Positions 6,901-47,860 of a stretch of DNA of 52,573 nucleotides are shown here, one piece after another. A model generated the notes under the pieces. That model was given only the letters and a program-made list of their open reading frames with translations, did no database searches and had not been told where the DNA came from. Source of the stretch: a virus; the IMG/VR virus record IMGVR_UViG_3300045988_103312, positions 1 through 52,573 of that record; one strand, written 5' to 3'. The position numbers and the translations under genes were made by a program. Within the stretch, counting starts at the first letter, position 1; each line of letters opens with the position of its first letter.

Positions 6901-8838
6901 CCAGTCGATGTCCGCCACGGCAATCTTCGCCGCCGCAATGCGCGCGACTTCCGCCTCCAGATCGGTGATCTGCGCCGACTTGATCTCCGCTTCGCCGATC
7001 TTGGCCGTCGCGATGTCCGCGATGGCCGCAGACAGGGACGTGATCTGCGCCCAGTTGATATTGGCCGCATTGATGTTCGCGGTGGTGATCTGCGCCTTGG
7101 AGATATTCGCGATCTGCGCCGTCAGCTCGGCGATCTGCGCCCAGTCAATGTTGGCCTCCTTGATGTTCGCCGTGGTGATCTGCGCCACGGCCAGTCTGGC
7201 GAGGTCGGCATACAGCTGATCCGTCGTCACGCTGCCCGCCACGATCTCATGGATGTCCGCCCGGATGGCCACAATGCTGTCCGCCGCCAGCTGCTCAATG
7301 GCCGCCTGAGCGATCTTGGCGTAGCCGATGGTGGCATTTCGCATGACGCTGTTGGCGTTGACGCTGCCCGGCAGGAGCTTCACGCCGGATACGCTGCCGT
7401 CGGCGATCTCGTAGCCATAGGTGGTCTGCTCAAGCTCCGAGATGTCGCCCACATACACGTCCTGATAGCGCTTCAGCAGGCAGTCGTAGACATAGCCGTT
7501 GACGCGGAGCTTGGCGTTGATGCCCACGTAGGAGGCTATGACGCGCACGCTGTCATACAAAAACACCGTAAGCAGCGGCGCGTAGTCCGCGTATTCCGCC
7601 GAGTTTTCCAGCGCCGCGAGCTGCACGTCGAGGCTCACCGCAGCCGCGTCCATGCCGTCCGCAAAATCCTGCTGGGCGAGGCGCTTCAGCTCGGCCCGGG
7701 CCGCCGCGTTATTCTTGAACTGCGCGTCCTTGGCCGTGGAGACGCTCACGTCGTATTCGATCTCCGCGTCCCGGCTGGTGGGGTAGAGGCCCTTGTTGGC
7801 GCTTTCCACCCATCCGTTATTCTCCGGGATGAGCAGACGGTTGCCGTCCTTGTCCTTGCCCACGGGCCGGATGCGCGTCACCACGCCGGACACATCCACC
7901 GTCAACACAGCGCCCAGAAGGTTTTTGCGATGCCGAATCTCCATGCCGCGATCCATGACCTCGTCCGGCAGGATATACACGTCGTAGTTGTCGCGGATGA
8001 TCCGCGCGCCGGTCTGGGGCACGATGCCAATGTCCGGGTCGAGCAGCGCCTTGACGATGGATGCGCCGGTGTAGTCGCCGGAAATCGCCTTAGTGACCTT
8101 GCAATGGAAGGTAAAGCCATGCTCGGCGCTGGCGCTGGCCAGAATGGTGCTCAGAACCGTGTCGGCGGCGACGTTTTCTGGCTGATAGTCTCTGGTACAG
8201 ATCACGCCGGACAGGTCGTAGAATATGTGGGAGGCCTTGACCTCCACCATGCCCGTCTCCGCGTCGCGCCCCACGGAATAGATGCGGAAGAGCTGATCCC
8301 GCGTCTGTTTGCTCTCGATGACGGTGCTGGGCTGGTCGCTGTCGCCCTTGACGGTCTCCGTCTCGTTGCGGTCGAATTTGAGATACTGGCTGTACATCCA
8401 GCCCGTCGCGCCGCCGCTCTTGATGACGACGCGCGACCAGTCGCCGGACTTGGAGAGCTGCACGACCTCCGTCCCGACCTTGTAGGCGCGGATGATCTTG
8501 GCCGAGGTGCTGGGCTTCGCCCGCAGTCTCAGGCGCGCGCCGGTGTTGGTTCGCACCTTGTAGATGGCGCGGGTGACGGTCTGCGTGGCTCCGCTGGGCA
8601 CGTTGTCGAGGATGCGCACAATGGGCGCTTCCCGCACGGCGCATGGGGCCTTGATGATGCATCCGTTTTGCAGGTACGTCCATTTCAGATCGTCGTCCAC
8701 GGGATGCTTCATCTCCAGCTCCATCAGGCCGCCGGCCTTTTCCTCCACGGTGCATTCCGTGGGCTGAAGCACGGCCAAACCGAGCGTGGAAAAGTCCTCG
8801 GCGTCTGCCGGGTAGATGTTGATCATAGATACCTCCAT
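3982..8838 (-). CDS. Tail-associated lysin-like / receptor-binding tail protein (Tal), 1618 aa
   Basis: Position after Dit; prophage-tail-like N-region with embedded SH3-like segment; A/I-rich repeats (ANIDWAQIAELTAQIANISKAQITTANINAANINWAQI); two tandem ~249-aa CBM-like modules; beta-rich C-terminus. Confidence 0.85.
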   Translation of the reverse strand: MEVSMINIYPADAEDFSTLGLAVLQPTECTVEEKAGGLMELEMKHPVDDDLKWTYLQNGCIIKAPCAVREAPIVRILDNVPSGATQTVTRAIYKVRTNTGARLRLRAKPSTSAKIIRAYKVGTEVVQLSKSGDWSRVVIKSGGATGWMYSQYLKFDRNETETVKGDSDQPSTVIESKQTRDQLFRIYSVGRDAETGMVEVKASHIFYDLSGVICTRDYQPENVAADTVLSTILASASAEHGFTFHCKVTKAISGDYTGASIVKALLDPDIGIVPQTGARIIRDNYDVYILPDEVMDRGMEIRHRKNLLGAVLTVDVSGVVTRIRPVGKDKDGNRLLIPENNGWVESANKGLYPTSRDAEIEYDVSVSTAKDAQFKNNAAARAELKRLAQQDFADGMDAAAVSLDVQLAALENSAEYADYAPLLTVFLYDSVRVIASYVGINAKLRVNGYVYDCLLKRYQDVYVGDISELEQTTYGYEIADGSVSGVKLLPGSVNANSVMRNATIGYAKIAQAAIEQLAADSIVAIRADIHEIVAGSVTTDQLYADLARLAVAQITTANIKEANIDWAQIAELTAQIANISKAQITTANINAANINWAQITSLSAAIADIATAKIGEAEIKSAQITDLEAEVARIAAAKIAVADIDWAHIKDLVAGTAIFTAGVGDKLHIARLAVTEANMVSLSVGELLVKGQDGSFYSVSVDADGNIVTEKKQVVNSDVKDLSINAGEKIIEGTVTAACLNANDIFANNATIKQLIAANIDVDTLFAREATINSLNAMDIRGNKYLQLYVTDKVDGISIGGRNLLRNTNQGTTNWDWSMQTGGKTIEEYLDGGVRAVKMTRDATPHAGWSVISYAIGKDAYVLLEPDAEYIVSMDYKSTVAAPNGISVNICTGEATDHAIQTATYDQAIPADEWTHIAVPIKTKSALPAFNYQLVYFTGFSSAVNSVHIFKNLKLEKGNKATDWSPAPEDIEERMSAAELKIEPDAIVSTVTSSASYKTLSSKADDNATDITGLKTRMTTAESKIDQKADSITLSVLETKVDGIAVGGRNLLRGTNQGTANWDWSMQTGGKTIEEYLGGGVRAVKMTRDAVEQTGWSIISYSVSEDAYALLEPNTEYTLSFDYKPSVATANGVMFSIRRGDGSNAATNDGGYWKEIPANEWTHVSGTFTTVENIPDFLLGSTEIYITRLPTAVGSVHIFKNLKLEKGNKSTDWSPAPEDPAGSLSVNSDYSKVDINTERVRIVSKRMEVAVPSDDGEDDVLRVDADGVHAEVVEADMIVSDSVVHTQGAASYTPANAGELAAYLEGLSGKCLTGDVDVNCINVSSGSFEVQGLCGAAGKLTLRNGALNALTVRGCGRNVIVYVESMEFSTSGVAVTVDDGAVMLLECSLNAGTGLRLGANWPSEAWLSDCEGDCTTLAALSSFSRLWASGSKPTGTLSLGAGSEVYNSTDDPTFAAKPDPSIPTTQTVTASLSPTSTSTSGYGSKLYQGRYSSSQSLRKGVMLFSLPSDLTSADKIDSATLTIKRIGGVGQGGGVSVHVRCYDVPGTLHASKTAYENQTVSIDVTNAVKAMKTNGYTGLMLYNPDTTTVGGKSYTASYSRFAGKGESGEPVLKISYRK

Positions 8839-18911: not shown

Positions 18912-20528
18912 TCAGATTTCGTCTCGCTTGTAAAGCACTTTTTTATTCCGGATGTTCTGCTCCCACTTTTTTCTGTTTGTTTCCATGAAAGTAAGAACGG
19001 AATTCTTATATTCCGGGTTATCCGTGGATGTGCTCAATCGCAATACAAGCCGAAACATTTTATCGTCCTCTTTGATCTCTTTTAAGATCAGGCCCGTATG
19101 AACCTTATCCTCAAGAATATAGTCTGGGCTGCGCAATATTTGAGCGATATAAGAGTAATACCGCTCGTAATCATTCGGGTGACGCTCTTTGATGTGCTGA
19201 ATCCGCTCTTCTGTAATCACGACCTCGTCCGTGGTAATATCCTTGGAGACGCAAGAATATATGCTCCGGTCGATTTTGCAGATGAAATTCACGCTGTTTT
19301 CGCTCGTTTTCGTGGACGCATTCGGCGCATCAGTCTTCGTTATCGCGGGATTAGTGGCGATGTTTTGAATTATACGCCCATTTTCGCCAACTGTAAAGGG
19401 CTTAAGCTTTTTTGCATCCGCGCTGAGGAGCACTCTGCCGCCCTCGCGGTCGTAGCGGCGGGGGAGCTTGGTCTCGCCGGTCAGCGTGCGGAGCTGGCGC
19501 TGCAGCTTATCAATGTGGGCCTTGCACATGCGCTCGTTTTCCGGCGTTGTGGACGCGGCCTGCATGCGCTTCCACTTGCGGATTTCCCGCTCCAATGTGC
19601 GCTGGTGCTGACTGGCCGTGTAGCGCGCCGCGCTCTCCTCCGGCGTGTATTCGCCCATGCCGGCGGTCAGATCGGACACGCCGGGAATGTATGGCTGGAG
19701 CACGTCTGCACAGTTGGGGTGAAACAGGCCCTGATCCATTGCGCCCTGCAATGATGGATGCGTCGGATCGTCGCCGGAAAGCGAAAGGATCACGCCATAC
19801 CATCTCGCGCACAGCGGGCATGCGCCCGGATGCCGGGTGACATAGGCGAGGTCTTGGCCCTTGGCCCGCATGGTGTCGATGGTGGCTTGCAGTCCGGCGC
19901 GGTGGATGGCCGTCCGCATGGCCATGTTGGCGTATTCATACAGGCCCCATTTTCTGCCGGCCTTGTCGGTAAAGCCGGTCACGCCGCTGGCCGCAAACTC
20001 TCTGATCGCCTCCTGCACTTCCGCGTTCAGTTTGGACGCGTTTCCGGGTTCCAGCCACGCGTCCCGCACCTTTTCCACGATCTGGCGGTAGATGTCGTCC
20101 GCGTCACGGCGCATGTGCTTCAGCTCGATTTGAGTGGACTCGTTGACAAGCCGCGTGAGCTCGTCGACGATTTTGATCATTTCCCGCTGCGCTCGCTCCG
20201 CTTCAACCTCCGTCTGCACGGCGAATGCCTCAATTTCATCGGCAATCGTCTCGGCGGTCGCCGCATAGGCCGTCAAAAGCGCCTGACGGGCCGCCTGAGC
20301 GGCTTCCTCTTCGAGCGCTGCGCAGATATTGTCCACGACGCGCGCAAGCTCACGCTGGATTCTGCGGCGCGTCAGTGCGCGATAGCGGCCGTGCTTGAGC
20401 GCCTTGCCGCCGAGCAGTGCGCCGAAGGCCCCGAACAGCTTGAGTTCCGCGTCTGAAAAAGAACTGGCGAACGCGTCCGCGGCCTCCAGAATGCGCCGAG
20501 GCAGGCTCTTACGCCCTCCGTTCGCCAT
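18912..20528 (-). CDS. MuF/SPP1 gp7-family head morphogenesis protein with extra C-terminal nuclease-toxin-like module
   Basis: MuF core (HPGACPLCARWYGVILS, LFHPNCADVLQPYI); last ~165 aa (18915-19409) AT-rich with ITEERIQHIKERHPNDYERYYSYIAQILRSPDYIL. Confidence 0.85.
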   Translation of the reverse strand: MANGGRKSLPRRILEAADAFASSFSDAELKLFGAFGALLGGKALKHGRYRALTRRRIQRELARVVDNICAALEEEAAQAARQALLTAYAATAETIADEIEAFAVQTEVEAERAQREMIKIVDELTRLVNESTQIELKHMRRDADDIYRQIVEKVRDAWLEPGNASKLNAEVQEAIREFAASGVTGFTDKAGRKWGLYEYANMAMRTAIHRAGLQATIDTMRAKGQDLAYVTRHPGACPLCARWYGVILSLSGDDPTHPSLQGAMDQGLFHPNCADVLQPYIPGVSDLTAGMGEYTPEESAARYTASQHQRTLEREIRKWKRMQAASTTPENERMCKAHIDKLQRQLRTLTGETKLPRRYDREGGRVLLSADAKKLKPFTVGENGRIIQNIATNPAITKTDAPNASTKTSENSVNFICKIDRSIYSCVSKDITTDEVVITEERIQHIKERHPNDYERYYSYIAQILRSPDYILEDKVHTGLILKEIKEDDKMFRLVLRLSTSTDNPEYKNSVLTFMETNRKKWEQNIRNKKVLYKRDEI

Positions 20529-20534
20529 TGCTCA

Positions 20535-21965
20535 TTACTCCTCCTCTTTTTTGTCCTGCGTTTTGAGCTGGTCAGAGGTATCGCCCATCAGCATGTTGCC
20601 GTACTGGGTGAGCGGATCGGCGGTGCTCTGGGATTCGCCCTCGATCTTGTTGACTTCCTCCTGCACCATCTCGTCCGTCCAGCCGTCCGCCGCATGGAGC
20701 ATGCGCACCTTGGTCTCGGTGCTGGCGGCTCCGGCGGCCTCGGCGTACTGGGCCATCTGGGCGTTTTCCACGAGGTTCGCGGGCATGGCGCGGGTCATGG
20801 TGATCTTCACGTCGTCCACGTTGAGCGCCGGATGCCCCTGCACCTTGCAAAAATTGGCGAAGAGCTTCAGGCGCGTCTTCAGGCCCTCTATAAACCACTG
20901 CTGCTTGACATTGGTCATCTGCTCAAGGCCCCAGAGCTTGTATTTCATGGCCACGCCGGAGGCGTTGGAGGCGAACTCCCGGTCGGACAAGTCAGGAATC
21001 ATGCTCATCTTGTGGATGTCCGCCACAAGCGCCGTCCGAAGCACCTCCACGTCGCTCTCGGTGAGCGCGCCCTGAAGATACTCGGCCTTGGCTTGCAGGT
21101 CGGGCAGGCAGAGTGCCTTGTCCTCCCGGAGCTGCTGCCACGGCGGGCGGCCCCGCTCGTCGTCCTCGAGGGTACAGCCGGTGAGCAGCAGCAGCTTGTC
21201 CACAAACTGTTCTTTGTCGTTGACGCGGTCGGACTGGAGCTTGTCGTATGCGTCGATGAGCGGCAGCACCCACTCGAAGTCGCCGCGCTCGTCCTCGTCG
21301 TTCCAGTACTCGATCATGGGCACGCCGCCGAAATAATGCTGGGTCTCGCCGACGACCGTGACCGCGCTGGCCGATAGATCGGTCATGTGGCACTCCCGGA
21401 CGCTCCGGTCGCCCATGAGATACACGCGCCAGCCGTCCTGATTGCCCTCTTCGGTGGTGTCCTTGGCATAGTACACGCCAAAGAGCGGCGTGTTGTGGTA
21501 ATCGTCGTCGTAGACGACAAAAGCCTGCTCCGGGGACAGCGCCGCCACGCAGGGAAGCACCTGTCCCTCGTCGTTTTCCGACACATGCACGTATTCCACG
21601 CCGCGTCCGTAGATGGAGGCGTGGCGGGCGTTCTCCGCGTCGATGGAGGAAATAGAGCACTTGCTATACGCGTCCGTGACGGGCTGCAGCGCGTCTTCGC
21701 CGCCGTCCACGGAGTAATTCACGGGCTGTCCGATGAGATAGCCCGTGGCCACGGAGACGATGTAGCGCGCGTAGGGATGGGCGATGCGGTTGTTGGGCAG
21801 GCCCTTCTGCCGGACGCGGCGGGTAATCTCGCTGTCGCCCCGGTAGTAGCCCGCCAGTCTGCCCAGCCGGGGAGCCTCGGCCAGATGCTCCGCCAGCACG
21901 CTGCGCAGCATGGCCGGAGAGGGCATGCCGGCCTCGTCCAGATAGCGCTTGGCGCGTGTAATCAT
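20535..21965 (-). CDS. Portal protein (SPP1 gp6-like)
   Basis: 476 aa between terminase and MuF; NNRIAHPYARYIVSVATGYLIGQPVNYS, acidic C-terminus. Confidence 0.9.
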   Translation of the reverse strand: MITRAKRYLDEAGMPSPAMLRSVLAEHLAEAPRLGRLAGYYRGDSEITRRVRQKGLPNNRIAHPYARYIVSVATGYLIGQPVNYSVDGGEDALQPVTDAYSKCSISSIDAENARHASIYGRGVEYVHVSENDEGQVLPCVAALSPEQAFVVYDDDYHNTPLFGVYYAKDTTEEGNQDGWRVYLMGDRSVRECHMTDLSASAVTVVGETQHYFGGVPMIEYWNDEDERGDFEWVLPLIDAYDKLQSDRVNDKEQFVDKLLLLTGCTLEDDERGRPPWQQLREDKALCLPDLQAKAEYLQGALTESDVEVLRTALVADIHKMSMIPDLSDREFASNASGVAMKYKLWGLEQMTNVKQQWFIEGLKTRLKLFANFCKVQGHPALNVDDVKITMTRAMPANLVENAQMAQYAEAAGAASTETKVRMLHAADGWTDEMVQEEVNKIEGESQSTADPLTQYGNMLMGDTSDQLKTQDKKEEE

Positions 21966-21980
21966 GTTGTCACCTCTTGC

Positions 21981-22184
21981 TTAGTAGATGTCCGAGCGCG
22001 TCGTTGCGACTCTGCGCCCGATTTCCGGCTCCAGCGCATAGCGTGAGGAGTCGATGCAGTTATGCACAATCAGCCCGCCGTTGACAGCGAAATTGTGGAA
22101 ACGCTCGACCTCCATGTTATACACGGGTTCAGCCGATCTGCGCTTCATGGCCTTCACGCGCACGTATTTTTCGTCTTCGCTCAT
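21981..22184 (-). CDS. terL: Terminase large subunit, C-terminal fragment: intein C-half (42 aa, 22059-22184) + 25-aa C-extein (21984-22058)
   Basis: MSEDEKYVRVKAMKRRSAEPVYNMEVERFHNFAVNGGLIVHN / CIDSSRYALEPEIGRRVATTRSDIY; intein blocks F/G ending HN then Cys+1; ATG overlaps methyltransferase stop (ATGA). An upstream TTG at 22247 is an alternative start. Confidence 0.8.
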   Translation of the reverse strand: MSEDEKYVRVKAMKRRSAEPVYNMEVERFHNFAVNGGLIVHNCIDSSRYALEPEIGRRVATTRSDIY

Positions 22185-23401
22185 ATCGCCATTTTCTCCT
22201 GAAGGGTCAGCCACGCCCGAATTTCGTCTGCCTGACGTTTTGGGCAATACAGGCGCTCCGTCACCTTTTTCTGATGTTTTGCTCCTTGCATTAATTGTCG
22301 CTTTTCAATTTCTGCTAGCATTGTAAAACGATCATCATCGATACAATACTCGGAAATGATGATTGGCGCGGTCTGTACATCCGCCCAGTCCAGAAATGCC
22401 GCTCGGTCAAACCGCACGCCGTAGTTGTCTGCGGTGCAGTTATATGGAATATCGCAGTACACCACTGCGTCTCCCGGGATCTTCACATCACGATAATCAA
22501 GTCCAGAAACTTGCAGCCCTTGCAGTCTTTGCAGTCTTTGCAGGCTTTGCAGGCTTTGCAGTCTTTGCAGTCTTTGCAGGCTTTGCAGGCTTTGCAGAAT
22601 CTCCAATGTGTTCAGTTTCTCATTCAACATCGCCCAGGGAATCGTCAGCCCCGGTATGATGGTTTTCATCTTCTCGTAGGCTTCTTCTGTCGGCAGCGCC
22701 CATTGGCTTTCGCCGAAATAATGCCCAGCCATACCGTTGGTTCCCAGCAATCTGTCCACGTCGCTGGCGCGCTTTTCGCTGTCCCGAAGAGCCGCGCGCA
22801 TATATTCGCGGATTTCTTTCGAATGTGCACGAAATACGCTCTTGCGGGTATTCTCTGCGTCAATACTTCCATCCGCGCGTTCAACTGAGGCCGCGCCGCA
22901 TTCTGCGCATAGCCGTCGTGCCTTTCCGCTCAGCACATCCACGTCCCGATTCAGACGATTGAATTCCGCCACAAAGGCCCGCCATGCACTCATGCGCTCG
23001 GCGACTGTGTCTGCGAAAACAAGCTCGTGCAGGCGCTTCTTGAACGGCTCGATTTCCTTCGCGTATAAATATGTATTACCATCGTTCCCGAACGACCAGC
23101 ACAGCCGCACATAAGCGTCCGTATCCTTCAGCCGGAAAAAGTCCTCTCTGGAAATCCAACGCTTTTCTGTTTCCGTCGTGTATTTCCCGGCAATTGCGTC
23201 CATAAATAGTTGCGGCGCGTCACCGTGAAGATCGTTGGCAATGATCCGCTCCCATTTCCCGGACAGCAGCGCCGCATGTGTCACCGCGCAGCCCCCGCAA
23301 AACAAATCGACCAGCGTTCCGCTCCCGGGCAGGTGCTCGATCACCCAGTCTGCAATCGCGTTTTTGCTCCCCTGGTATGGTAAGCCGTATTTCCGTGCCA
23401 T
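22181..23401 (-). CDS. DNA N6-adenine methyltransferase (D12/Dam class), located between the split-intein halves
   Basis: LPYQGSKN, motif I DLFCGGCAV, motif IV VVYCDIPY; own GGAGG SD 5 nt upstream of ATG 23401; contains (LQ[SRG])10 repeat. Confidence 0.85.
   Translation of the reverse strand: MARKYGLPYQGSKNAIADWVIEHLPGSGTLVDLFCGGCAVTHAALLSGKWERIIANDLHGDAPQLFMDAIAGKYTTETEKRWISREDFFRLKDTDAYVRLCWSFGNDGNTYLYAKEIEPFKKRLHELVFADTVAERMSAWRAFVAEFNRLNRDVDVLSGKARRLCAECGAASVERADGSIDAENTRKSVFRAHSKEIREYMRAALRDSEKRASDVDRLLGTNGMAGHYFGESQWALPTEEAYEKMKTIIPGLTIPWAMLNEKLNTLEILQSLQSLQRLQRLQSLQSLQRLQRLQGLQVSGLDYRDVKIPGDAVVYCDIPYNCTADNYGVRFDRAAFLDWADVQTAPIIISEYCIDDDRFTMLAEIEKRQLMQGAKHQKKVTERLYCPKRQADEIRAWLTLQEKMAI
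22510..22599. repeat. Ten tandem 9-bp repeats (cttgcagyc/tttgcagkc) inside the methyltransferase gene
   Basis: Read directly; higher-order 36-bp pattern (gtc,gtc,ggc,ggc) x2; encodes LQSLQSLQRLQRLQSLQSLQRLQRLQGLQ. Confidence 0.95.
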
Positions 23402-24876
23402 TTTACCTCCAAAATTTCATCGTCCTCCGCAATCTGACGCGCCGAAACCCATCCGCGCCGGGTCAGGATCGGGTGCTCGCCGCTCGCTCGGAGGATTCGA
23501 CCGTCCTCCAGCTCGATTTCGTATATTTCCTCCACGCCCGTCTGCCGGACGTCAAAAAAGCGAGCCGTCGCCGCTCGCCCGTTTTCCTCGTCGTAGCAGA
23601 TCACCGCGCCGGTCTGCCCGACCAGCTCGTCGATGCGCTTTTCGCCGTCCACGGTGCATACCAGCGTGTCTCCGGTCAGGCAGTGGTTGTCCTTGTCCGG
23701 ATACGCGGGCAGGAAATTCCCGTTCTTGTCCTGCAAATATTCGTATTTCTGGAATTCCCGGGCGATGTTGGGCGTTCGCCGCGGGTCGACTGCGATTGCG
23801 CCCAAGTCCTCCAGCCATCGCATGCCGTGCTCCACGCTGCCCGCGCCCTTGCGCACGCCAACGGCGGTCACGCCGCGCCGCTTCAGCTCGGATATCATCC
23901 GCGGATCGGCGCTGTCGCAGCGCACGATCTCCCGCCCTGCCAGCGCGGCGACCTTTTCTGCTAGCGTGTCGATGTTGGTGTGGGAGCCGTAGTACTCGGC
24001 GACGGCATACAGCCTGCGCGTCCTGCGGCTGTAGGCCCAGCGGGTGAACGCGTCCGGGTCGGTGGCAAAGCCGAAGTCGAGACCGTTGTAAAAGGTCTCA
24101 AGAGCGCCGATCTCTTCGTCGCCGATCTCCCGCAGCTCCAAGTTATCGAACACATTGCCGCCGGTGCCTGTGACCTCGCCCAGGTACTCGTTGCGGTAGG
24201 CGCGCTCGTTGGTGGCTCTGACGGCTTCAGCCTCGGCAATAAACGCGTCCGCCAGCCAACTGCGATGTTTTCGAACTACCTGCAGGTAATTGCTGTAATG
24301 CACTAGCCTGTCTTCGCGTGGCTTCAGTGCCTCGGCGTTCACCCAGCACTGCGCCGATTTCGGAGGGTTGTAGCTGTAAAATGTTACGGCTCTCTCCACG
24401 CCGCGAAACACGGATTGCTTGATGGTTCGCACGTCCTCCATACTGCGATATTCCGCCAGCTCTTCAAACCATAAATACTTGAAATAACCATGCGTCAGTT
24501 TGATAGACTTGGATTTCATTGGGTCGTCCGCACCGCGAAACAGCACGCGTTGAACAATCCCGTCCGGCCGCCGATATTCAATCTCCAGCGGCGAACGTCG
24601 GAATCTACAATATGGCGAAAGCCCAAGAACATCAAACGCCCAAATCATTTGAGAATACACGCTGTCCTTCAGCGTGTTCCCAACGCGTCTGTAAATAATA
24701 GCGTTCGCATACTCGTCATCCACAATGCCGATGGCGATCAGCAGCGAAATAAAGCTGGATTTTGTGGAGCCGCGCCCGCCTGCAAGCCAGTATTCCGCGT
24801 GTCCCTCGTCCAGAAAGTCATTCAGCACCGTCCCGAAAGCGTCATCGCAGAACAGCGCGTTGAAATCAACATTCAT
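23341..24876 (-). CDS. terL: Terminase large subunit, N-terminal fragment: N-extein (23683-24876) + intein N-half (23344-23682)
   Basis: PBSX/XtmB-like terminase (Walker A-like WLAGGRGSTKSS) to ...PAYPDKDNH, then CLTGDTLVCTVDGEKRIDELV (block A) and LRASGEHPILT (block B). Start set at ATG 24876 (MNVDFNALF, AGGTG SD), since the longer track ORF overlaps TerS. Confidence 0.85.
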   Translation of the reverse strand: MNVDFNALFCDDAFGTVLNDFLDEGHAEYWLAGGRGSTKSSFISLLIAIGIVDDEYANAIIYRRVGNTLKDSVYSQMIWAFDVLGLSPYCRFRRSPLEIEYRRPDGIVQRVLFRGADDPMKSKSIKLTHGYFKYLWFEELAEYRSMEDVRTIKQSVFRGVERAVTFYSYNPPKSAQCWVNAEALKPREDRLVHYSNYLQVVRKHRSWLADAFIAEAEAVRATNERAYRNEYLGEVTGTGGNVFDNLELREIGDEEIGALETFYNGLDFGFATDPDAFTRWAYSRRTRRLYAVAEYYGSHTNIDTLAEKVAALAGREIVRCDSADPRMISELKRRGVTAVGVRKGAGSVEHGMRWLEDLGAIAVDPRRTPNIAREFQKYEYLQDKNGNFLPAYPDKDNHCLTGDTLVCTVDGEKRIDELVGQTGAVICYDEENGRAATARFFDVRQTGVEEIYEIELEDGRILRASGEHPILTRRGWVSARQIAEDDEILEVKWHGNTAYHTRGAKTRLQTG

Positions 24877-25165
24877 CGCCGCACCTGCGCACAATGATAT
24901 TCGGCGCGCCGCCCTCCGGCGCAACCGTCTCGACTTCCTGCTTTGCCTTTCCAAAGGCTTTTTCAACGCAGAAAATCGCCACGCGCGCCTGTACCGCCGG
25001 GTCTGTCTCTTTTCCCATCATCAGCTCTTCCAGTTTGTCCAGTCCCTTTTTTCCAAGGTCGTTAATGCGCGTTCGGTCTTCATCGGACAGCCTTGGCCGT
25101 CCTGCGCCCTTTCCATGTATCTTGTTGCCTTTAACAAAACGTCCCCTTGCGTCGCGTTCGGCCAA
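24866..25165 (-). CDS. terS: Terminase small subunit (putative)
   Basis: 99 aa just upstream of and overlapping TerL; basic N-terminus RDARGRFVKGNKIHGKGAGRPRLSDEDR. Confidence 0.55.
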   Translation of the reverse strand: MAERDARGRFVKGNKIHGKGAGRPRLSDEDRTRINDLGKKGLDKLEELMMGKETDPAVQARVAIFCVEKAFGKAKQEVETVAPEGGAPNIIVRRCGDEC

Positions 25166-25459
25166 AGCCCGTCACCTCTTTTCACCGTATATTCGTCCGT
25201 AAAAGTCGGAGATACGGACGGATATAAAAAGGCATGGCTCCGCTATATGGCAATCCATGCGTCGTGTTTTTGCCTCCATACCCTCCCACCGAAACCGCGT
25301 CCTGCCCCCAGCCTGCAATAAAAACGGACGCTCCCGCAGCCGGAGAGGAGGAAAGACCCCGGCGCACGCCAAAATCGGCACAGAGAGAGGACAGGCCGCA
25401 ATCTCCGGCCTGTCCATGCTGAAAGTATACCGCAAAAGTACTGCACCGCACTGCCAACT

Positions 25460-25909
25460 TTACGCCGCGTCGCTGTTGCGCAGCTCCCGGAGCACATAGA
25501 AGAACCTCCGGCGCATGCGGTAGAACGAGCGCTCGCTGCATGGGCATCCGTCGGCGATGATGCGGGTCACGCCGTCCTTGCGGGTCACGGCCCGCAGCAG
25601 CCAGGGTGCCAGCTCGGCCCCGGCGAGCTTTGCCGCCCGGTCGATGAGCCGCACGTCCCGCAGCAGGCGCTCCCGCTTTTCGGCCATCTCGGCCACGGGA
25701 TCGGACACGCCTCCGCCGCCCCTGCCCGGGAAATCCGCGCTTCCATCGGCGGCGACGACCGGCTGCGGCGTGGAGACGCGCAGCGTCAGCAGGTTCTCCG
25801 CCTCCTGCTTTTTGCGATGGTACTGCCGGCAGAAGTAGTCAAGCTCCTTATACTCGTCCCAGGTCACGTCCCAGCCGTCCAGATTCACGCCGCGCTTGCT
25901 GGCCGCCAT
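25460..25909 (-). CDS. Putative late-gene transcriptional regulator (RinA/ArpU/sigma-like)
   Basis: Start ATG 25909 with GGAGGAGG SD; C-terminal SERSFYRMRRRFFYVLRELR typical of phage sigma-like activators located upstream of terminase genes. Confidence 0.4.
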   Translation of the reverse strand: MAASKRGVNLDGWDVTWDEYKELDYFCRQYHRKKQEAENLLTLRVSTPQPVVAADGSADFPGRGGGGVSDPVAEMAEKRERLLRDVRLIDRAAKLAGAELAPWLLRAVTRKDGVTRIIADGCPCSERSFYRMRRRFFYVLRELRNSDAA

Positions 25910-25910
25910 T

Positions 25911-26261
25911 TTATTCCTCCTCCCGATGCAGGGAATGCTCCGCATCGAACCTCTCCGGGTAGCGGTGCCGGAGCTTGCGGATGTTGAGAGCCGCCACCGT
26001 CTCGAGGCTCACTCCCAGCACGTCGGCCAGCTCCGCGGCAAACCAGAGCAGGTCGCCAAGCTCGTCCACGACCCTGTCCGCGTTCAGCGGATGCCCCTGA
26101 AAGACCTTCTGATACAGCGCGTGGATTTCGCCGACCTCGCTGGCGAGGCCGTGGAGCGCGTGCATCCGGCGCTCGCAGGGGTTCAGCCTGCCGTTCTGGG
26201 TGCCGCGCGCATCGCGCTGATAGCCGTTAAGGGTCATTTCCCGGGGTTCCATTGCGTGCAT
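25911..26261 (-). CDS. mazG: MazG-like nucleotide pyrophosphohydrolase
   Basis: LASEVGEIHALYQKVFQGHPLNADRVVDELGDLLWFAAELADVLGVSLETV; start ATG 26261 with AAAGGAGGA SD. Confidence 0.8.
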   Translation of the reverse strand: MHAMEPREMTLNGYQRDARGTQNGRLNPCERRMHALHGLASEVGEIHALYQKVFQGHPLNADRVVDELGDLLWFAAELADVLGVSLETVAALNIRKLRHRYPERFDAEHSLHREEE

Positions 26262-44561: not shown

Positions 44562-46001
44562 GTGGGAAAATGCGCGAGATGTGGAAGACACGGGCTGTTT
44601 GTCCGCGTCAGCAAGGAGAGCGGATTGTGCAAAGTCTGCGAATACACTGAGGCCGCGGATAAGGCCGAGGCGCGGGCGCGGCAGAGTGACGCGCTGCTGC
44701 AGGAGGCGATGCGTCAGGCCCAGACAGAGGCCTATCAGGCGCTGGAGCATCAGACCAAAGAGCTTGAGCGAAAGAGCGCAGATTGCCAGAATGAACTGCG
44801 TGATCTAACCGCACGGCGTGACGCGCTCGCAATGGAGAACGCCGCCGCGCAAAGCAAGCTCACCACGGCGATATCGCGGACGGAAAAGCTCAAATATCTG
44901 GCGCAGAGCATCAACGCCGCGCTGGAAGCGACGACTCGCGGAGAGAGCGTCCCGGAAATCAAGGACTTGGAGGAGCTTTTGCCCGAGAATGACTTGAACT
45001 GCCTGACGGTTAAGACGCTTGCCGCGAAGTATCGCGAGACGCGGAAGCAGATCATCGCCGTATGCAAGGCGTATGAATCCAATTACGAGACAAAGACAAT
45101 CCGCGCGCTGTATCGGCTGATGGTGCTTGGCCTTGAGGCGGAGCTGGAAAACGTGTTGTATACGCTGCGCTTCGGTACGCTGGACAAGGCGATTGCGGAT
45201 ATTCGCACGTTGACGAGCAAGTACTACACCATCGCGATAGACGGCAATCAGACGATTGCGCCCACGCTGAGGCGATTTATCGCCCAGATTGAAAGCCTGT
45301 ATCTCAAGACCGTAGACATTGAGTATGAATATTACGTCAAGCGCGAGCAGGCCAAGGAAGAGCAGCGCGCCATCAAAGAGCAGATGCGGCAGGAGGCCGA
45401 AGAGCGCAAGCAGCTCGAAGCCGAGAAAAAGCGCGTCGAGGCCGAGGAAAAGAAATATCAGCAGGAGATCGACCGAATCGTGGCCGAGATGAACAAGGCA
45501 CACGGCGAGGAACTGGCGGCACTGCAGCGTCGACTCGATGAGATGAACGGGCTGATGAGCAAGGTTGAAGAGAAGAAGGCCGAAATCGTCAATCTGCAAA
45601 ACGGCAAGGCCGGCACGGTGTATATCATCAGCAATATCGGCGCGTTTGGCGACAACGTATTTAAGATCGGCATGACGCGGCGCCTGGAGCCGCAGGAGCG
45701 CGTGGATGAACTCGGAAGCGCGTCGGTGCCGTTCCCGTTTGACGTTCACAGCTTTATCTTCAGCGACGATGCGGTCGAGCTGGAAAATGATCTGCACAAA
45801 GAGCTGGATTCCCGGCGCGTCAATAAAATCAATCGCCGGAAAGAGTTTTTCAACGTCGATGTGGGAGAGCTGCGGGAAATCGTGGAGCGAATCGACCCCA
45901 CCGCGTCCTTCCGCGAAACGGCGTTGGCGGAACAGTACAGACAGAGCGTATCTATGGCGAGAGAGCGTATGGACGATAAGTTTGAGGAGGAACAGGCATG
46001 A
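44562..46001 (+). CDS. Zinc-ribbon / DUF4041-like coiled coil / T5orf172 (GIY-YIG-superfamily) domain protein
   Basis: GTG start 8 nt after GGAGG; CARCG...CKVCE; C-terminal GTVYIISNIGAFGDNVFKIGMTRRLEPQERVDELGSASVPFPFDVH...LENDLHKELDSRRVN...EFF. Confidence 0.75.
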   Translation: MGKCARCGRHGLFVRVSKESGLCKVCEYTEAADKAEARARQSDALLQEAMRQAQTEAYQALEHQTKELERKSADCQNELRDLTARRDALAMENAAAQSKLTTAISRTEKLKYLAQSINAALEATTRGESVPEIKDLEELLPENDLNCLTVKTLAAKYRETRKQIIAVCKAYESNYETKTIRALYRLMVLGLEAELENVLYTLRFGTLDKAIADIRTLTSKYYTIAIDGNQTIAPTLRRFIAQIESLYLKTVDIEYEYYVKREQAKEEQRAIKEQMRQEAEERKQLEAEKKRVEAEEKKYQQEIDRIVAEMNKAHGEELAALQRRLDEMNGLMSKVEEKKAEIVNLQNGKAGTVYIISNIGAFGDNVFKIGMTRRLEPQERVDELGSASVPFPFDVHSFIFSDDAVELENDLHKELDSRRVNKINRRKEFFNVDVGELREIVERIDPTASFRETALAEQYRQSVSMARERMDDKFEEEQA

Positions 46002-46321: not shown

Positions 46322-47860
46322 ATGATCTGCGCCATGTACCTGCGCAAGTCCCGCGCGGACTACGAGGCCGAAGCCCGCGGCGAGGGGGAGACGCTGGCCA
46401 AGCATCGCGAAACACTGCTGGCCGTCGCAAAGGCCCGCGATCTGACCGTCACCGACGTATTTTCCGAACTTGTATCCGGCGACACCATCGCCGAGCGCCC
46501 GGAGATGCAGCGGCTCATGCGTGCCGTGGAGCGCGGCGATTACGACGCGGTGCTCTGCATGGACATTGACCGCCTCGGGCGCGGCGACGGAGCCGACCAG
46601 TCCGCCATCCTCAAGACGCTCAAGTACTCGGACACCATCGTCATCACGCCTTACAAGGACTACAACACCCGCCGGGAGATGGACGAGGAATTTTTTGAGT
46701 ACTCCCAGTTTATCGCCAGGTCTGAATACAAGCGCATCAAGCGCCGCATGTGGGCAGGCCGCGTCGCCTCCGTCAAGGAGGGGAAGTGGATCAGCCCCAA
46801 GGCGCCGTTTGGCTATCGGCGCGTTCGCATTGAGCCTGGGCGCGGCTGGACGCTGACTCCAGAGCCCTCCGAAGCCGAAGCGGTGCGCAGCATGTTTGCC
46901 TGGTATGCCTCGGGCGAGTGCGGCAAAAATACCATTGCCCGGCGCATCAACGATATGGGCTTCCGGACTTATGGCGGGAAAAACTTTGATCCGTCGGAAA
47001 TTCGATCAATACTGACCAATCCCGTCTATATTGGCAAAATTCGCTGGAATTACCGCCATCAAAATATCGAAATGAAGGACGGCAAGGAGATCGTCACCCG
47101 CCCGCGGTCATCTGAGTGTCTTGTCTCTGACGGCCTGCATCCGGCCATTGTCGACAAGGATGTTTTTGACGCCGTTCAGCGGTGCTTTACTAGTCTCGGC
47201 GACCCATGCGTACCCTTTCGGCGCGAGATGGTCAACCCGCTCAGCGGTCTGATGCACTGCGCCGAATGCGGCCGGGCCATGCACATGGTCCCAGAATATA
47301 AGCGCTACGGAGTGGACGCTACCTATCGCTGCCGGAAAATAGGCGGCTGCGCCACCACAACCATTGAAGCGAAATACGTATATGACGCGCTGCTTTTCGC
47401 GTTGAGGCAATGGTCAACGTATGGCGATAGTGATGGTTATGCGCCGGATTGCGCTGCTCCTGTCAATGATACGCTGCCGCAAATTCGAGCGGTTTCCGCG
47501 CAGATCACCCAGCTGCGCAATCAATTATCCAAGCTCCAAGATTTGCTTGAAACTGGCGTATACAGCGCCGATACCTACGTCGAGCGCAGCAAGGTCATCA
47601 ATGACCGTATCGCCGCTGCGTCAGCCACACTGGCCGAACTTCGTCAGTCTCAGCCCGTCGACGAGCACGCCGCCATCATCCGGCTGAAGCCTAAGATCAG
47701 GCATTTGCTCGACACGTGGGATGATTCAACACCCGCCGAAAAAAACGCGCTGCTTCGGACAATTGTCCGGGAGATCAAGTACAAAAAAACGCGGCGGTGC
47801 TTCCGAAACGAAAACCCCGCCGAATATCTTACGTTGACTATCTATCCCATTGTGGATTAA
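46322..47860 (+). CDS. int: Large serine recombinase (integrase)
   Basis: Resolvase N-domain (YLRKSRAD...catalytic Ser, DIDRLGRG), recombinase domain, zinc ribbon CAECGRAMH...CRK, C-terminal coiled coil. Confidence 0.92.
   Translation: MICAMYLRKSRADYEAEARGEGETLAKHRETLLAVAKARDLTVTDVFSELVSGDTIAERPEMQRLMRAVERGDYDAVLCMDIDRLGRGDGADQSAILKTLKYSDTIVITPYKDYNTRREMDEEFFEYSQFIARSEYKRIKRRMWAGRVASVKEGKWISPKAPFGYRRVRIEPGRGWTLTPEPSEAEAVRSMFAWYASGECGKNTIARRINDMGFRTYGGKNFDPSEIRSILTNPVYIGKIRWNYRHQNIEMKDGKEIVTRPRSSECLVSDGLHPAIVDKDVFDAVQRCFTSLGDPCVPFRREMVNPLSGLMHCAECGRAMHMVPEYKRYGVDATYRCRKIGGCATTTIEAKYVYDALLFALRQWSTYGDSDGYAPDCAAPVNDTLPQIRAVSAQITQLRNQLSKLQDLLETGVYSADTYVERSKVINDRIAAASATLAELRQSQPVDEHAAIIRLKPKIRHLLDTWDDSTPAEKNALLRTIVREIKYKKTRRCFRNENPAEYLTLTIYPIVD

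Follow-up and report, generated by a model that had tools for sequence, protein, structure and literature searches.

How a phage can make a working packaging enzyme from a gene interrupted by another gene is the question raised by the terL locus of IMG/VR virus record IMGVR_UViG_3300045988_103312, positions 1 to 52,573 (the whole 52,573-nt stretch analyzed, referred to here as the window). The gene terL encodes the terminase large subunit (TerL). In the window, the N-terminal part of TerL runs directly into the N-terminal half of an intein (IntN), a free-standing DNA methyltransferase gene follows, and the C-terminal intein half (IntC) precedes the missing end of TerL. The locus is very probably a fractured terL whose products are joined by a trans-splicing split intein, with a Dam-family methyltransferase as the sole gap gene in a slot taken over from an HNH endonuclease. 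Position numbers are those of the whole stretch unless they are preceded by the number of a related locus (L or P).

The fractured region consists of three minus-strand open reading frames (ORFs), each in a different frame, and frame arithmetic gives an offset of -1 between successive ORFs (Table 1). The TerL-N and IntN ORF runs from 24876 to 23341. The program-made ORF extends back to TTG 24966; ATG 24876 (MNVDFNAL...) is favored as the TerL start because the homologue in L088 begins MNVNFDSLY. The TerL N-fragment matches Terminase_3 (PF04466; 2.5e-27, 96.2 bits) and Terminase_3C (PF17288; 5.7e-11, 43.5 bits), both above cut-off. TIGR01547 scores 84.4, below its cut-off of 105, because the N-fragment lacks the TerL C-terminus. 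The intein sequence opens with CLTGDTLVCTVDGEKRIDELV..., contains block A (CLTGDTLVC) and block B (LRASGEHPILT), and is recognized by TIGR01445 intein_Nterm at 35.9 bits (cut-off 24.5). The last ORF comprises 67 codons, 22184 to 21981, and reads MSEDEKYVRVKAMKRRSAEPVYNMEVERFHNFAVNGGLIVHN followed by CIDSSRYALEPEIGRRVATTRSDIY. Its intein part is recognized by TIGR01443 intein_Cterm at 25.8 bits (cut-off 15.6), and blocks F and G with the extein boundary read VYNMEVERFHNFAVNGGLIVHN|C. The start ATG of this ORF (22184-22182) shares bases with the methyltransferase TGA in an ATGA overlap. The methyltransferase ORF is the sole content of the gap and matches PF02086 MethyltransfD12 at 54.1 bits (cut-off 22). 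The original prediction, which was made from the sequence of the window, had described these ORFs, the intein blocks with their splicing residues, and the ATGA overlap. Its coordinates and sequences were borne out base for base, the overlap is seen in the sequence, and the two intein profiles, run as a check, score above their cut-offs. A second terminase gene through which the phage might be viable, a possibility raised with that prediction, was not found in the window: the terminase query pieces gave no further match and no terminase family was matched by the other long ORFs.

Table 1. Features of the fractured terL locus and its flanking genes.
Feature	Positions	Strand	Basis
Putative small terminase subunit gene (terS), 99-aa ORF, overlaps the terL start by 11 nt	24866..25165	-	Position and likeness to the 100-aa ORF upstream of L088 terL
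TerL N-extein, 398 aa, ends ...YPDKDNH; ATPase (Walker A GGRGSTKS) and most of the RNase H-like nuclease	23683..24876	-	Profiles and 2WBN alignment
IntN, N-half of a class-1 intein, 93 aa, Cys1 = TGC 23682-23680, ends EILEV	23404..23682	-	TIGR01445
Out-of-frame tail on IntN, 20 codons (KWHGNTAYHTRGAKTRLQTG) and stop 23343-23341; overlaps the methyltransferase 5' end	23341..23403	-	Sequence
GGAGG Shine-Dalgarno of the gap gene, 4 nt upstream of the methyltransferase ATG	23406..23410	-	Sequence
Dam-like methyltransferase, free-standing, 406 aa; ATG 23401, TGA 22183-22181	22181..23401	-	PF02086, motifs, predicted fold
Tandem repeat in the methyltransferase gene, 9-bp in-frame unit, 9.7 copies, (L-Q-S/R/G)n	22511..22597	-	TRF score 132
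AGGAG Shine-Dalgarno of the IntC ORF, within methyltransferase codons Gln-Glu-Lys, 11 nt upstream of ATG 22184	22196..22200	-	Sequence
IntC, C-terminal intein half, 42 aa, MSEDEK-YVRVKAMKRRSAEPVYNMEVERFHNFAVNGGLIVHN, blocks F and G, ends ...GLIVHN	22059..22184	-	TIGR01443
TerL C-extein, 25 aa and stop 21983-21981: CIDSSRYALEPEIGRRVATTRSDIY; with Cys+1 and the catalytic Asp (= G2P Asp403)	21981..22058	-	SPP1 alignment
Portal protein gene, directly downstream in the same operon	20535..21965	-	phrog_64 4.5e-110; SPP1_portal in related loci

Splicing of the two exteins would give a TerL of 423 aa. Among PDB sequences this predicted product aligns with the nuclease domain of SPP1 G2P (2WBN, E 1e-41), and the alignment is ungapped across the junction (...aypdkdnh|cidssryalepei versus ...ledkdnhtidatryaferdm in G2P; the C-extein is aligned to SPP1 TIDATRYAFERDM). 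The intein is positioned between the metal ligands His400 and Asp403 (G2P numbering), two residues before the catalytic Asp. By a residue count on the 2WBN alignment, the predicted spliced TerL retains all four catalytic residues of G2P, D266, D321, H400 and D403. The equivalents of Asp266, Asp321 and His400 reside on the N-fragment, in GLDFG, RCDSADP and DKDNH, and that of Asp403 on the 25-aa C-extein, so that the N-fragment alone is without one catalytic residue. His400 and Asp403 of G2P hold an Mn2+ ion, and nuclease activity is lost in the D266N, D321N, H400A and D403N mutants (PMC2685612). The intein-less relatives L006 and L010, whose TerL is 76-77% identical, read YPDKDNHCIDSSRYALEPEIG at this site, and DKDNH-CIDSSRYALEPEIG is the predicted ligation product. 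The enzyme had been proposed to be a PBSX/XtmB-type TerL interrupted at a nuclease motif, with DKDNH-CIDSSRYAL as the rejoined sequence; the profile matches and the alignment across the junction agree with the former, and the continuity of L006 and L010 across the site agrees with the latter.

All the residues that define a class-1 intein are present, namely Cys1, the block-B His, the penultimate His, the terminal Asn and Cys+1, and the splicing residues are invariant in 12 of 12 alleles compared, split and contiguous. The window IntN is 94-99% identical to the IntN of alleles that have an HNH gene in the gap or a contiguous mini-intein, and the C-extein is 100% identical in all close alleles. 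As read from these alleles, the break in the intein falls at the canonical point of endonuclease insertion, after the N-terminal blocks and before block F, where the original prediction had placed it: the same point is occupied in the mini-intein of L005 by a linker 5 codons wide (EILEV-SGHTL-RVRS) and is used by the HNH gene of L003. The net charge is -11 for IntN and +1 for IntC, the IntC core (residues 7-42) carrying +3. Opposite charges of the two halves have been reported for natural split inteins (PMC2677866).

Profile match, sequence motifs and predicted fold all identify the product of the gap gene as a D12-class Dam-like N6-adenine DNA methyltransferase, and the protein would be expected to have methyltransferase activity. 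Motif I (DLFCGG, residues 32-37) precedes motif IV (DIPY, residues 317-320), the order of the alpha type, and a large helical insert of ~150 aa lies between them. In an alignment of 69 sequences D32, F34, G36 and G37 of motif I and D317, P319 and Y320 of motif IV are invariant, and the T4 Dam sequence aligns at both motif regions. The AlphaFold2 model of the methyltransferase has a pLDDT of 79.6. Foldseek ranks 4RTL (E. coli Dam) and 1Q0S and 1YF3 (T4 Dam) highest (probability 1.0, E 2e-4), and the helical insert explains why the TM-score on the target reaches only 0.45. The search for homologues returned more than 6,400, and those that have a name in their source are called 'DNA adenine methylase'. 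Among deposited phage proteins, the protein-level search gave only distant relatives of this family. An HNH remnant or nuclease domain hidden within the methyltransferase was considered and rejected: BLASTP against the L003 HNH protein gave E 0.19, and Pfam, NCBIfam and PHROG returned methyltransferase families only. The D12/Dam-class assignment and the lack of an endonuclease domain in the gap, both part of the original prediction, therefore stand.

The tandem repeat of the methyltransferase sits just before catalytic motif IV, and the model has a pLDDT of 31 at residues 280-292. The number of repeat units is 5, 8, 8, 11, 12 and 14 in alleles that are 91-93% identical to the whole window protein. 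The 38 full-length homologues that were tabulated have 5-24 units, without exception [L/I][Q/E]x triplets, and shorter variants 0-7. A possible role of the LQx repeat is that of a spacer of variable length separating the recognition module from the catalytic half. A single, loosely worded search of the literature found no description of such a repeat.

Short forms of the methyltransferase, 264-301 aa, were also encountered (L110 3001-3906, P0016, P0019, P0020, P0036, P0040 and P0042). In the two that were aligned, P0016 and P0019, a central helical module of ~105 aa is gone (window residues ~156-258, including the LCAECG element), and both catalytic halves are kept together with the repeat region, which is degenerate in P0019. 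The L110 gene is a short variant located in the intein gap. A separate observation concerns window positions 22700-23399 and L001 7476-8180, where there are 41 base differences in the 5' two-thirds of the methyltransferase gene; elsewhere the two are set apart by a single base in 1.5 kb of terL and by none from 22700 to 21100. The pattern suggests a recombination tract in which alleles exchanged the part with motif I and the helical insert.

Searching viral contigs with the TerL-N ORF gave 80 related loci, to which pattern scans and exact-protein look-ups added more. Alleles were classed by mapping five query pieces onto the loci and then reading the ORFs. Most loci have no intein. A contiguous mini-intein occurs in L005/L097, L102, L088, L104, L105 and L107, with a TerL of 548 aa in L005 (EILEV-SGHTL-RVRSVKRR at the linker). 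In L016 and L018 a contiguous intein has an HNH ORF nested in another frame. A split intein with an HNH_3 gap gene (PF13392, 1.6e-15) is found in L003 and L098 (216-aa ORF in both) and in L193-L198, and in L101, P0125 and P0140 the intein is split and the IntC ORF opens with an HNH N-terminal remnant. The cultured phage BL3 has a split intein without a gap gene. The split intein with a methyltransferase is present in the window (same contig as L081), L001/L002, L004, L103, L108, L109, L110 and L199/L200, in at least 9 distinct contigs from different samples.

The gap contents differ within a module that was shared recently, because the 3' half of terL, IntC and the portal gene are near-identical. 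In a comparison of the window, L004, L003 and L005, identity is 47-76% over the first ~700 nt of terL and rises to 84-100% per 100-nt block, mostly >90%, over the last ~700 nt with IntN included. Nucleotide identity between alleles is 96% over IntC, the C-extein and the portal gene. Stand-alone mini-ORFs of IntC plus TerL-C form 144 protein clusters at E <= 1e-6, with lengths of 42-117 aa among the best 120 of the 144, and a split TerL at this site is on that account common in metagenomes. Four other split lineages were sampled and have HNH in the gap (three from the 144 clusters, all HNH_3, and phage CL2); BL3 has none. The small sample of three lineages drawn from the 144 clusters gave no non-endonuclease cargo. 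In deposited phage genomes blastn gave only a 151-bp match, and at the protein level deposited phage proteins contained only distant relatives of the intein.

Several loci of the survey depart from these classes or illustrate them further. L016 (5932-8163, nested ORF 7380-8003) and L018 (247-2532, nested ORF 1704-2378) have a TerL of ~40% identity with the contiguous intein at the same DKDNH|C site. In L101 (6258-6503, minus strand), P0125 and P0140, the first 10-25 HNH residues (MIEYIDDGKRALFNGLVF... or MVVRYIDNGKRE...) are fused to IntC, and these look like footprints of endonuclease-gene deletion. L106 (4712-6290, contig CAKUKM010000009 of a metagenome-assembled genome, MAG) carries a 476-aa ORF that combines an unrelated N-part (MTTKMKDAKNAF...) with the C-terminal two-thirds of an HNH protein; IntC/TerL-C follows, there is no TerL-N upstream, and L107 in the same MAG is a normal mini-intein TerL. 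L106 is either a rearranged remnant or a mis-assembly. In L100 (2890-2973, a low-coverage contig) IntC is cut at residue 20 and is preceded by unrelated AT-rich sequence reaching the contig end; this may represent a chimera or a different type of insertion.

The junctions show how the methyltransferase gene is fitted into the intein. All alleles are identical up to ...GAAATTTTGGAGGTA. The GGAGG of the gap gene is made of the intein codons Leu-Glu-Val and is also present in the HNH and mini-intein alleles; it predates any gap gene, since mini-intein alleles without one already have it. After the shared 5' stretch, the HNH allele continues with AAGACGGAATG, the methyltransferase allele with AAATG and the mini allele with TCAGG. 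On the 5' side, GGAGGTA-AA is common to the HNH and methyltransferase alleles and is not found in the mini allele. On the 3' side, these two share TACGTGCGCGTGAAGGCC (YVRVKA), where the mini alleles have TLRVRS. In L004 and L108 the TerL-N TGA overlaps the methyltransferase ATG, so both junctions are ATGA overlaps. In the window the junction TGA is changed to TGG, giving the 20-residue tail, which is confined to window-type alleles (window, L109, L110); because it is absent in L004 and L108, the tail is not a conserved part of the system. Two details of the original prediction are modified by these comparisons. The Shine-Dalgarno sequence it assigned to the methyltransferase is present, not as an acquisition of that gene; and the 20-codon drift of the first ORF into the next gene holds for the window-type alleles, L004 and L108 stopping at the junction TGA.

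At the other end, the methyltransferase gene of every gap allele terminates in ...ATATGA and that of L088, where the gene lies outside the intein, in ...ATATAA (CAGGAGAAAATGGCGATATAA; ATGGCGATATAA). Due to this one-base TAA/TGA difference the IntC ATG exists only in gap alleles. The orthologous L088 gene already carries the AGGAG bases at its own 3' end. The 14 bases GCGAAGACGAAAAA at 22185-22171 (IntC residues SEDEK) are unlike the HNH allele, the mini-intein linker, or the sequence downstream of the L088 methyltransferase gene. The first six IntC codons encode MSEDEK in the window and MSEGEK, MSKQKE or MSEQKK in other alleles.

The closest indication of the source of the gap gene comes from L088 and L104, which have a TerL 76-77% identical to that of the window, a contiguous mini-intein, and a 73%-identical methyltransferase gene directly upstream of terS. 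TerL (77%) and the methyltransferase (73%) have diverged to about the same extent between the window and L088, as would be expected had the phage's own gene moved ~1.7 kb into the intein rather than been imported from afar. In other contexts the gene also lies upstream of the packaging genes (L091) or next to the gene for single-stranded DNA-binding protein, SSB (L089 and L090); in every other methyltransferase locus whose neighborhood was read, the gene is beside SSB or upstream of the terminase genes. Most likely, one lineage exchanged the usual HNH endonuclease gene for the methyltransferase gene that the phage already had. An exchange of gap genes is favored over two separate invasions of a mini-intein because the HNH and methyltransferase alleles share junction bases. 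The idea that a methyltransferase within an intein is a habit of this gene family was dropped: tblastn and a regular expression for blocks F and G, applied to 80 viral loci that carry family members and to six others, found flanking intein halves in this lineage alone.

Both parts of the arrangement appear to be maintained. The cluster of the 67-aa IntC ORF (MSEGEK...) contains 26 member sequences on 18 contigs. The ratio of non-synonymous to synonymous substitution rates (dN/dS) of the intein is 0.09-0.37, with 0.18 between two methyltransferase alleles (10.5 synonymous versus 6.5 non-synonymous changes), and that of the methyltransferase among gap alleles is 0.15-0.37. These values indicate purifying selection on the intein as well as on the methyltransferase. 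Between the methyltransferase alleles, terS, the 5' half of terL, the number of repeats and the TerL C-terminal tail (L199) vary, and L110 has the ~105-aa methyltransferase deletion; despite such variation both junctions are kept in all of them. Independent assemblies from ENA, Logan and JGI/IMG share the same junctions. The cultured Lactobacillus phage CL2 and Brochothrix phage BL3 have a split TerL at the same site, which shows that the split-TerL design is viable.

The following sequence of events is proposed. The genes terS, terL-N/IntN, methyltransferase, IntC/terL-C and portal would be transcribed as one late operon, as suggested by the gap having no promoter-like and no convincing terminator-like site; a scan of 21500-26000 gave no promoter-like site, and terminator-like sites at background level only. 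The methyltransferase would be translated from the GGAGG formed by the last intein codons, and translation of the IntC ORF would be coupled to it through the ATGA overlap and the internal AGGAG, signals that are all seen in the sequence. The acidic IntN and basic IntC would then associate and trans-splice, yielding the 423-aa TerL (...DKDNH-CIDSSRYAL...) with a complete His/Asp metal site. The methyltransferase would modify replicated phage DNA before packaging, most plausibly as protection against host restriction.

Several observations weigh against this scheme. In block B the usual Thr is replaced by Ser (SGEH), and in block F an Asn stands at a position that is Asp in many inteins (VYNMEVE); both are traits of the family, because the cis-splicing mini alleles share them. 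Motif IV of the methyltransferase is DIPY instead of DPPY, though this is common across the methyltransferase family. The 20-aa tail of IntN in the window allele carries a charge of +4 and is not conserved. Splicing and methylation are both deduced from conservation and relatives, and most of the contigs that carry the arrangement are metagenomic, which bears on whether this particular phage is viable. The direction of replacement, HNH to methyltransferase or the reverse, is weakly supported by the few shared junction bases. Two motif-pattern scans did not place a methyltransferase elsewhere in phages with HNH or mini alleles, their contigs not being among the matches listed, which is only suggestive.

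The complementary charges of IntN and IntC lead one to expect tight association, and from sequence alone association and splicing are inseparable. The TerL fragments could, as the original prediction also allowed, be held together non-covalently by the intein halves or the exteins, with the intein serving as a dimerization module and no peptide bond being formed. This is improbable. Residues that serve the chemistry only are invariant in 12 alleles at a synonymous divergence >1, whereas they would be free to drift if association sufficed, and an unspliced 135-aa intein between His400 and Asp403 would occupy the metal site. Moreover, the natural split inteins GOS-TerL and AceL-TerL trans-splice in vitro (PMC11766414). 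It is less probable still that insertion of the methyltransferase killed terL and left a defective prophage or a decaying pseudogene. The evidence is mostly from metagenome contigs and a serine recombinase is encoded, so that persistence as a prophage without packaging is conceivable. However, at least 9 contigs with mosaic, diverged flanks retain the same junctions, three intact ORFs, precise coupling and dN/dS well below 1; several of the carrying contigs are ~50 kb long and belong to a curated viral-contig collection; and a split TerL at the same site works in CL2 and BL3.

We consider it extremely improbable that the arrangement is an assembly chimera, a contiguous intein with sequencing frameshifts, or an IntN-methyltransferase-IntC fusion made by recoding. 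The successive -1 offsets would in principle allow two -1 shifts to fuse all three ORFs. Nonetheless, identical junctions are obtained from the three independent sets of assemblies, the junction TGA of L004 and L108 ends the TerL-N frame and rules out conserved read-through, no canonical slippery heptamer is seen at either junction, and the methyltransferase is a complete, end-to-end orthologue of the free-standing gene in sibling phages. A trans-splicing fractured terL with a methyltransferase gap gene is thus retained as the preferred reading.

The design of fractured genes, including a terminase example, is already known. Dassa, London, Stoddard, Schueler-Furman and Pietrokovski (2009) described 27 fractured-gene loci, one of them a terminase, with GIY-YIG or Vsr-like endonucleases as the only gap genes (PMC2677866). 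The window resembles these loci in having one gene in two co-oriented ORFs at one locus, a separately translated gap gene, a break in the endonuclease region, and halves of opposite charge. It differs in that the free-standing homing endonuclease, the defining third element, is replaced by a methyltransferase without a nuclease domain. The Dassa terminase is also of the gp17/T4 type with an atypical break, whereas terL here is of the PBSX/SPP1 type with a canonical break. The sister alleles L003, L098 and L193-L198, with their HNH_3 endonuclease, are textbook fractured genes of that description.

Like the intein in the window, GOS-TerL and AceL-TerL are natural split inteins in a phage large terminase, and both have been shown experimentally to trans-splice (PMC11766414). 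By description they are set apart, being atypically split, with 25-37 aa in IntN and 104-115 aa in IntC (PMC11766414), compared with 93 and 42 aa here. Gosselin, Arsenault and Gogarten reported actinobacteriophage terminase inteins invaded by free-standing endonuclease genes, as in the gap-gene design (bioRxiv 10.1101/2025.01.02.630785). All their nested genes are endonucleases (HNH, LAGLIDADG, Vsr-like, EndoVII-like), and methyltransferases are unmentioned (bioRxiv 10.1101/2025.01.02.630785). The nested HNH genes of L016 and L018 match the out-of-frame endonuclease design of those actinobacteriophages (bioRxiv 10.1101/2025.01.02.630785).

The split inteins of CL2 (KR905067) and BL3 (HM144386) belong to the same family (31-42% identity) and occupy the homologous His|Cys-x-Asp site. 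In CL2 an HNH gene fills the gap, BL3 has no gap gene, and a methyltransferase is in the gap of neither. The IntC/TerL-C ORF of CL2 (L191, ~2590-2733; ...VYNMEVESHHNFAVDGGFIVHN|CMDATRY...) is unannotated in GenBank. In BL3 (L192, 727-2607) gp2 and the 98-aa gp3 are the two TerL halves and are adjacent; no intein is annotated in the record of either phage. The literature search found no intein described in BL3, and a term search found no CL2 paper. The methyltransferase itself has motif I, the recognition region and motif IV in common with orphan phage Dams (T4 Dam and the E. coli Dam fold), and Dam is its best structural match. It departs from the T4 and E. coli enzymes in the ~150-aa helical insert, in the variable (L-Q/E-x)n repeat, and in its location inside the intein of another gene.

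The literature search found no description of a methyltransferase between intein halves, only nucleases within or between the halves, and judged by the papers searched the methyltransferase is new as a gap occupant. This agrees with the original prediction, which had named no described case, and with the exclusively GIY-YIG and Vsr-like gap genes of Dassa 2009 (PMC2677866). The survey of gap occupants in relatives that it suggested yielded the at least 9 methyltransferase contigs, the four other sampled lineages with HNH, and BL3 with an empty gap.

The genes around the fractured terL are those of a temperate human-gut Clostridia phage. Other long ORFs of the window were matched to proteins that include endolysin, tail proteins, a P22-type coat protein and a large serine recombinase, which together identify a temperate tailed phage. 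The 99-aa ORF is the putative terS and first gene of the packaging operon, an assignment from position and visible similarity; Pfam and PHROG searches of this ORF gave no family. The minor head protein (phrog_581; 18912-20528, minus strand) has an extra C-terminal domain, residues 407-535, that matches phrog_29609, to which no function is assigned. Counterparts of this gene in related loci match PBECR2 or Ntox50, toxin-like domains. On the plus strand, at 44562-46001 and 46322-47860, a 479-aa protein with a C-terminal T5orf172/MUG113 domain adjoins the large serine recombinase, which is likely the integrase.

That the split intein is a non-chance landing pad for cargo beneficial to the phage, with the methyltransferase blocking HNH homing or locking the intein in place, is a rather unlikely proposition. 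If the anti-homing version were true, methylation of the HNH endonuclease target would make the terL allele immune; if the locking version were true, precise loss of the intein would also delete the anti-restriction gene. In either version a selfish element would have been made the carrier of an adaptive gene, the translation of which is tied to terminase production.

Split inteins with a gap gene have so far been explained wholly by homing-endonuclease invasion. The slot is evidently open to an ordinary, apparently useful gene, and the essential terL is presumably still rescued by trans-splicing despite the cargo gene. The alleles form a natural series in near-identical backgrounds, from no intein through mini-intein, nested HNH, split with HNH, split with remnant and split empty to split with methyltransferase, which makes the gene-breaking model of Dassa and the conversion of cis- to trans-splicing inteins directly testable. 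The 93-aa and 42-aa halves are a canonical split pair only a few residues from cis-splicing relatives, and are possibly useful for protein engineering. Tiny IntC/TerL-C ORFs are easily missed in annotation, and a split TerL goes unmarked even in the records of cultured phages.

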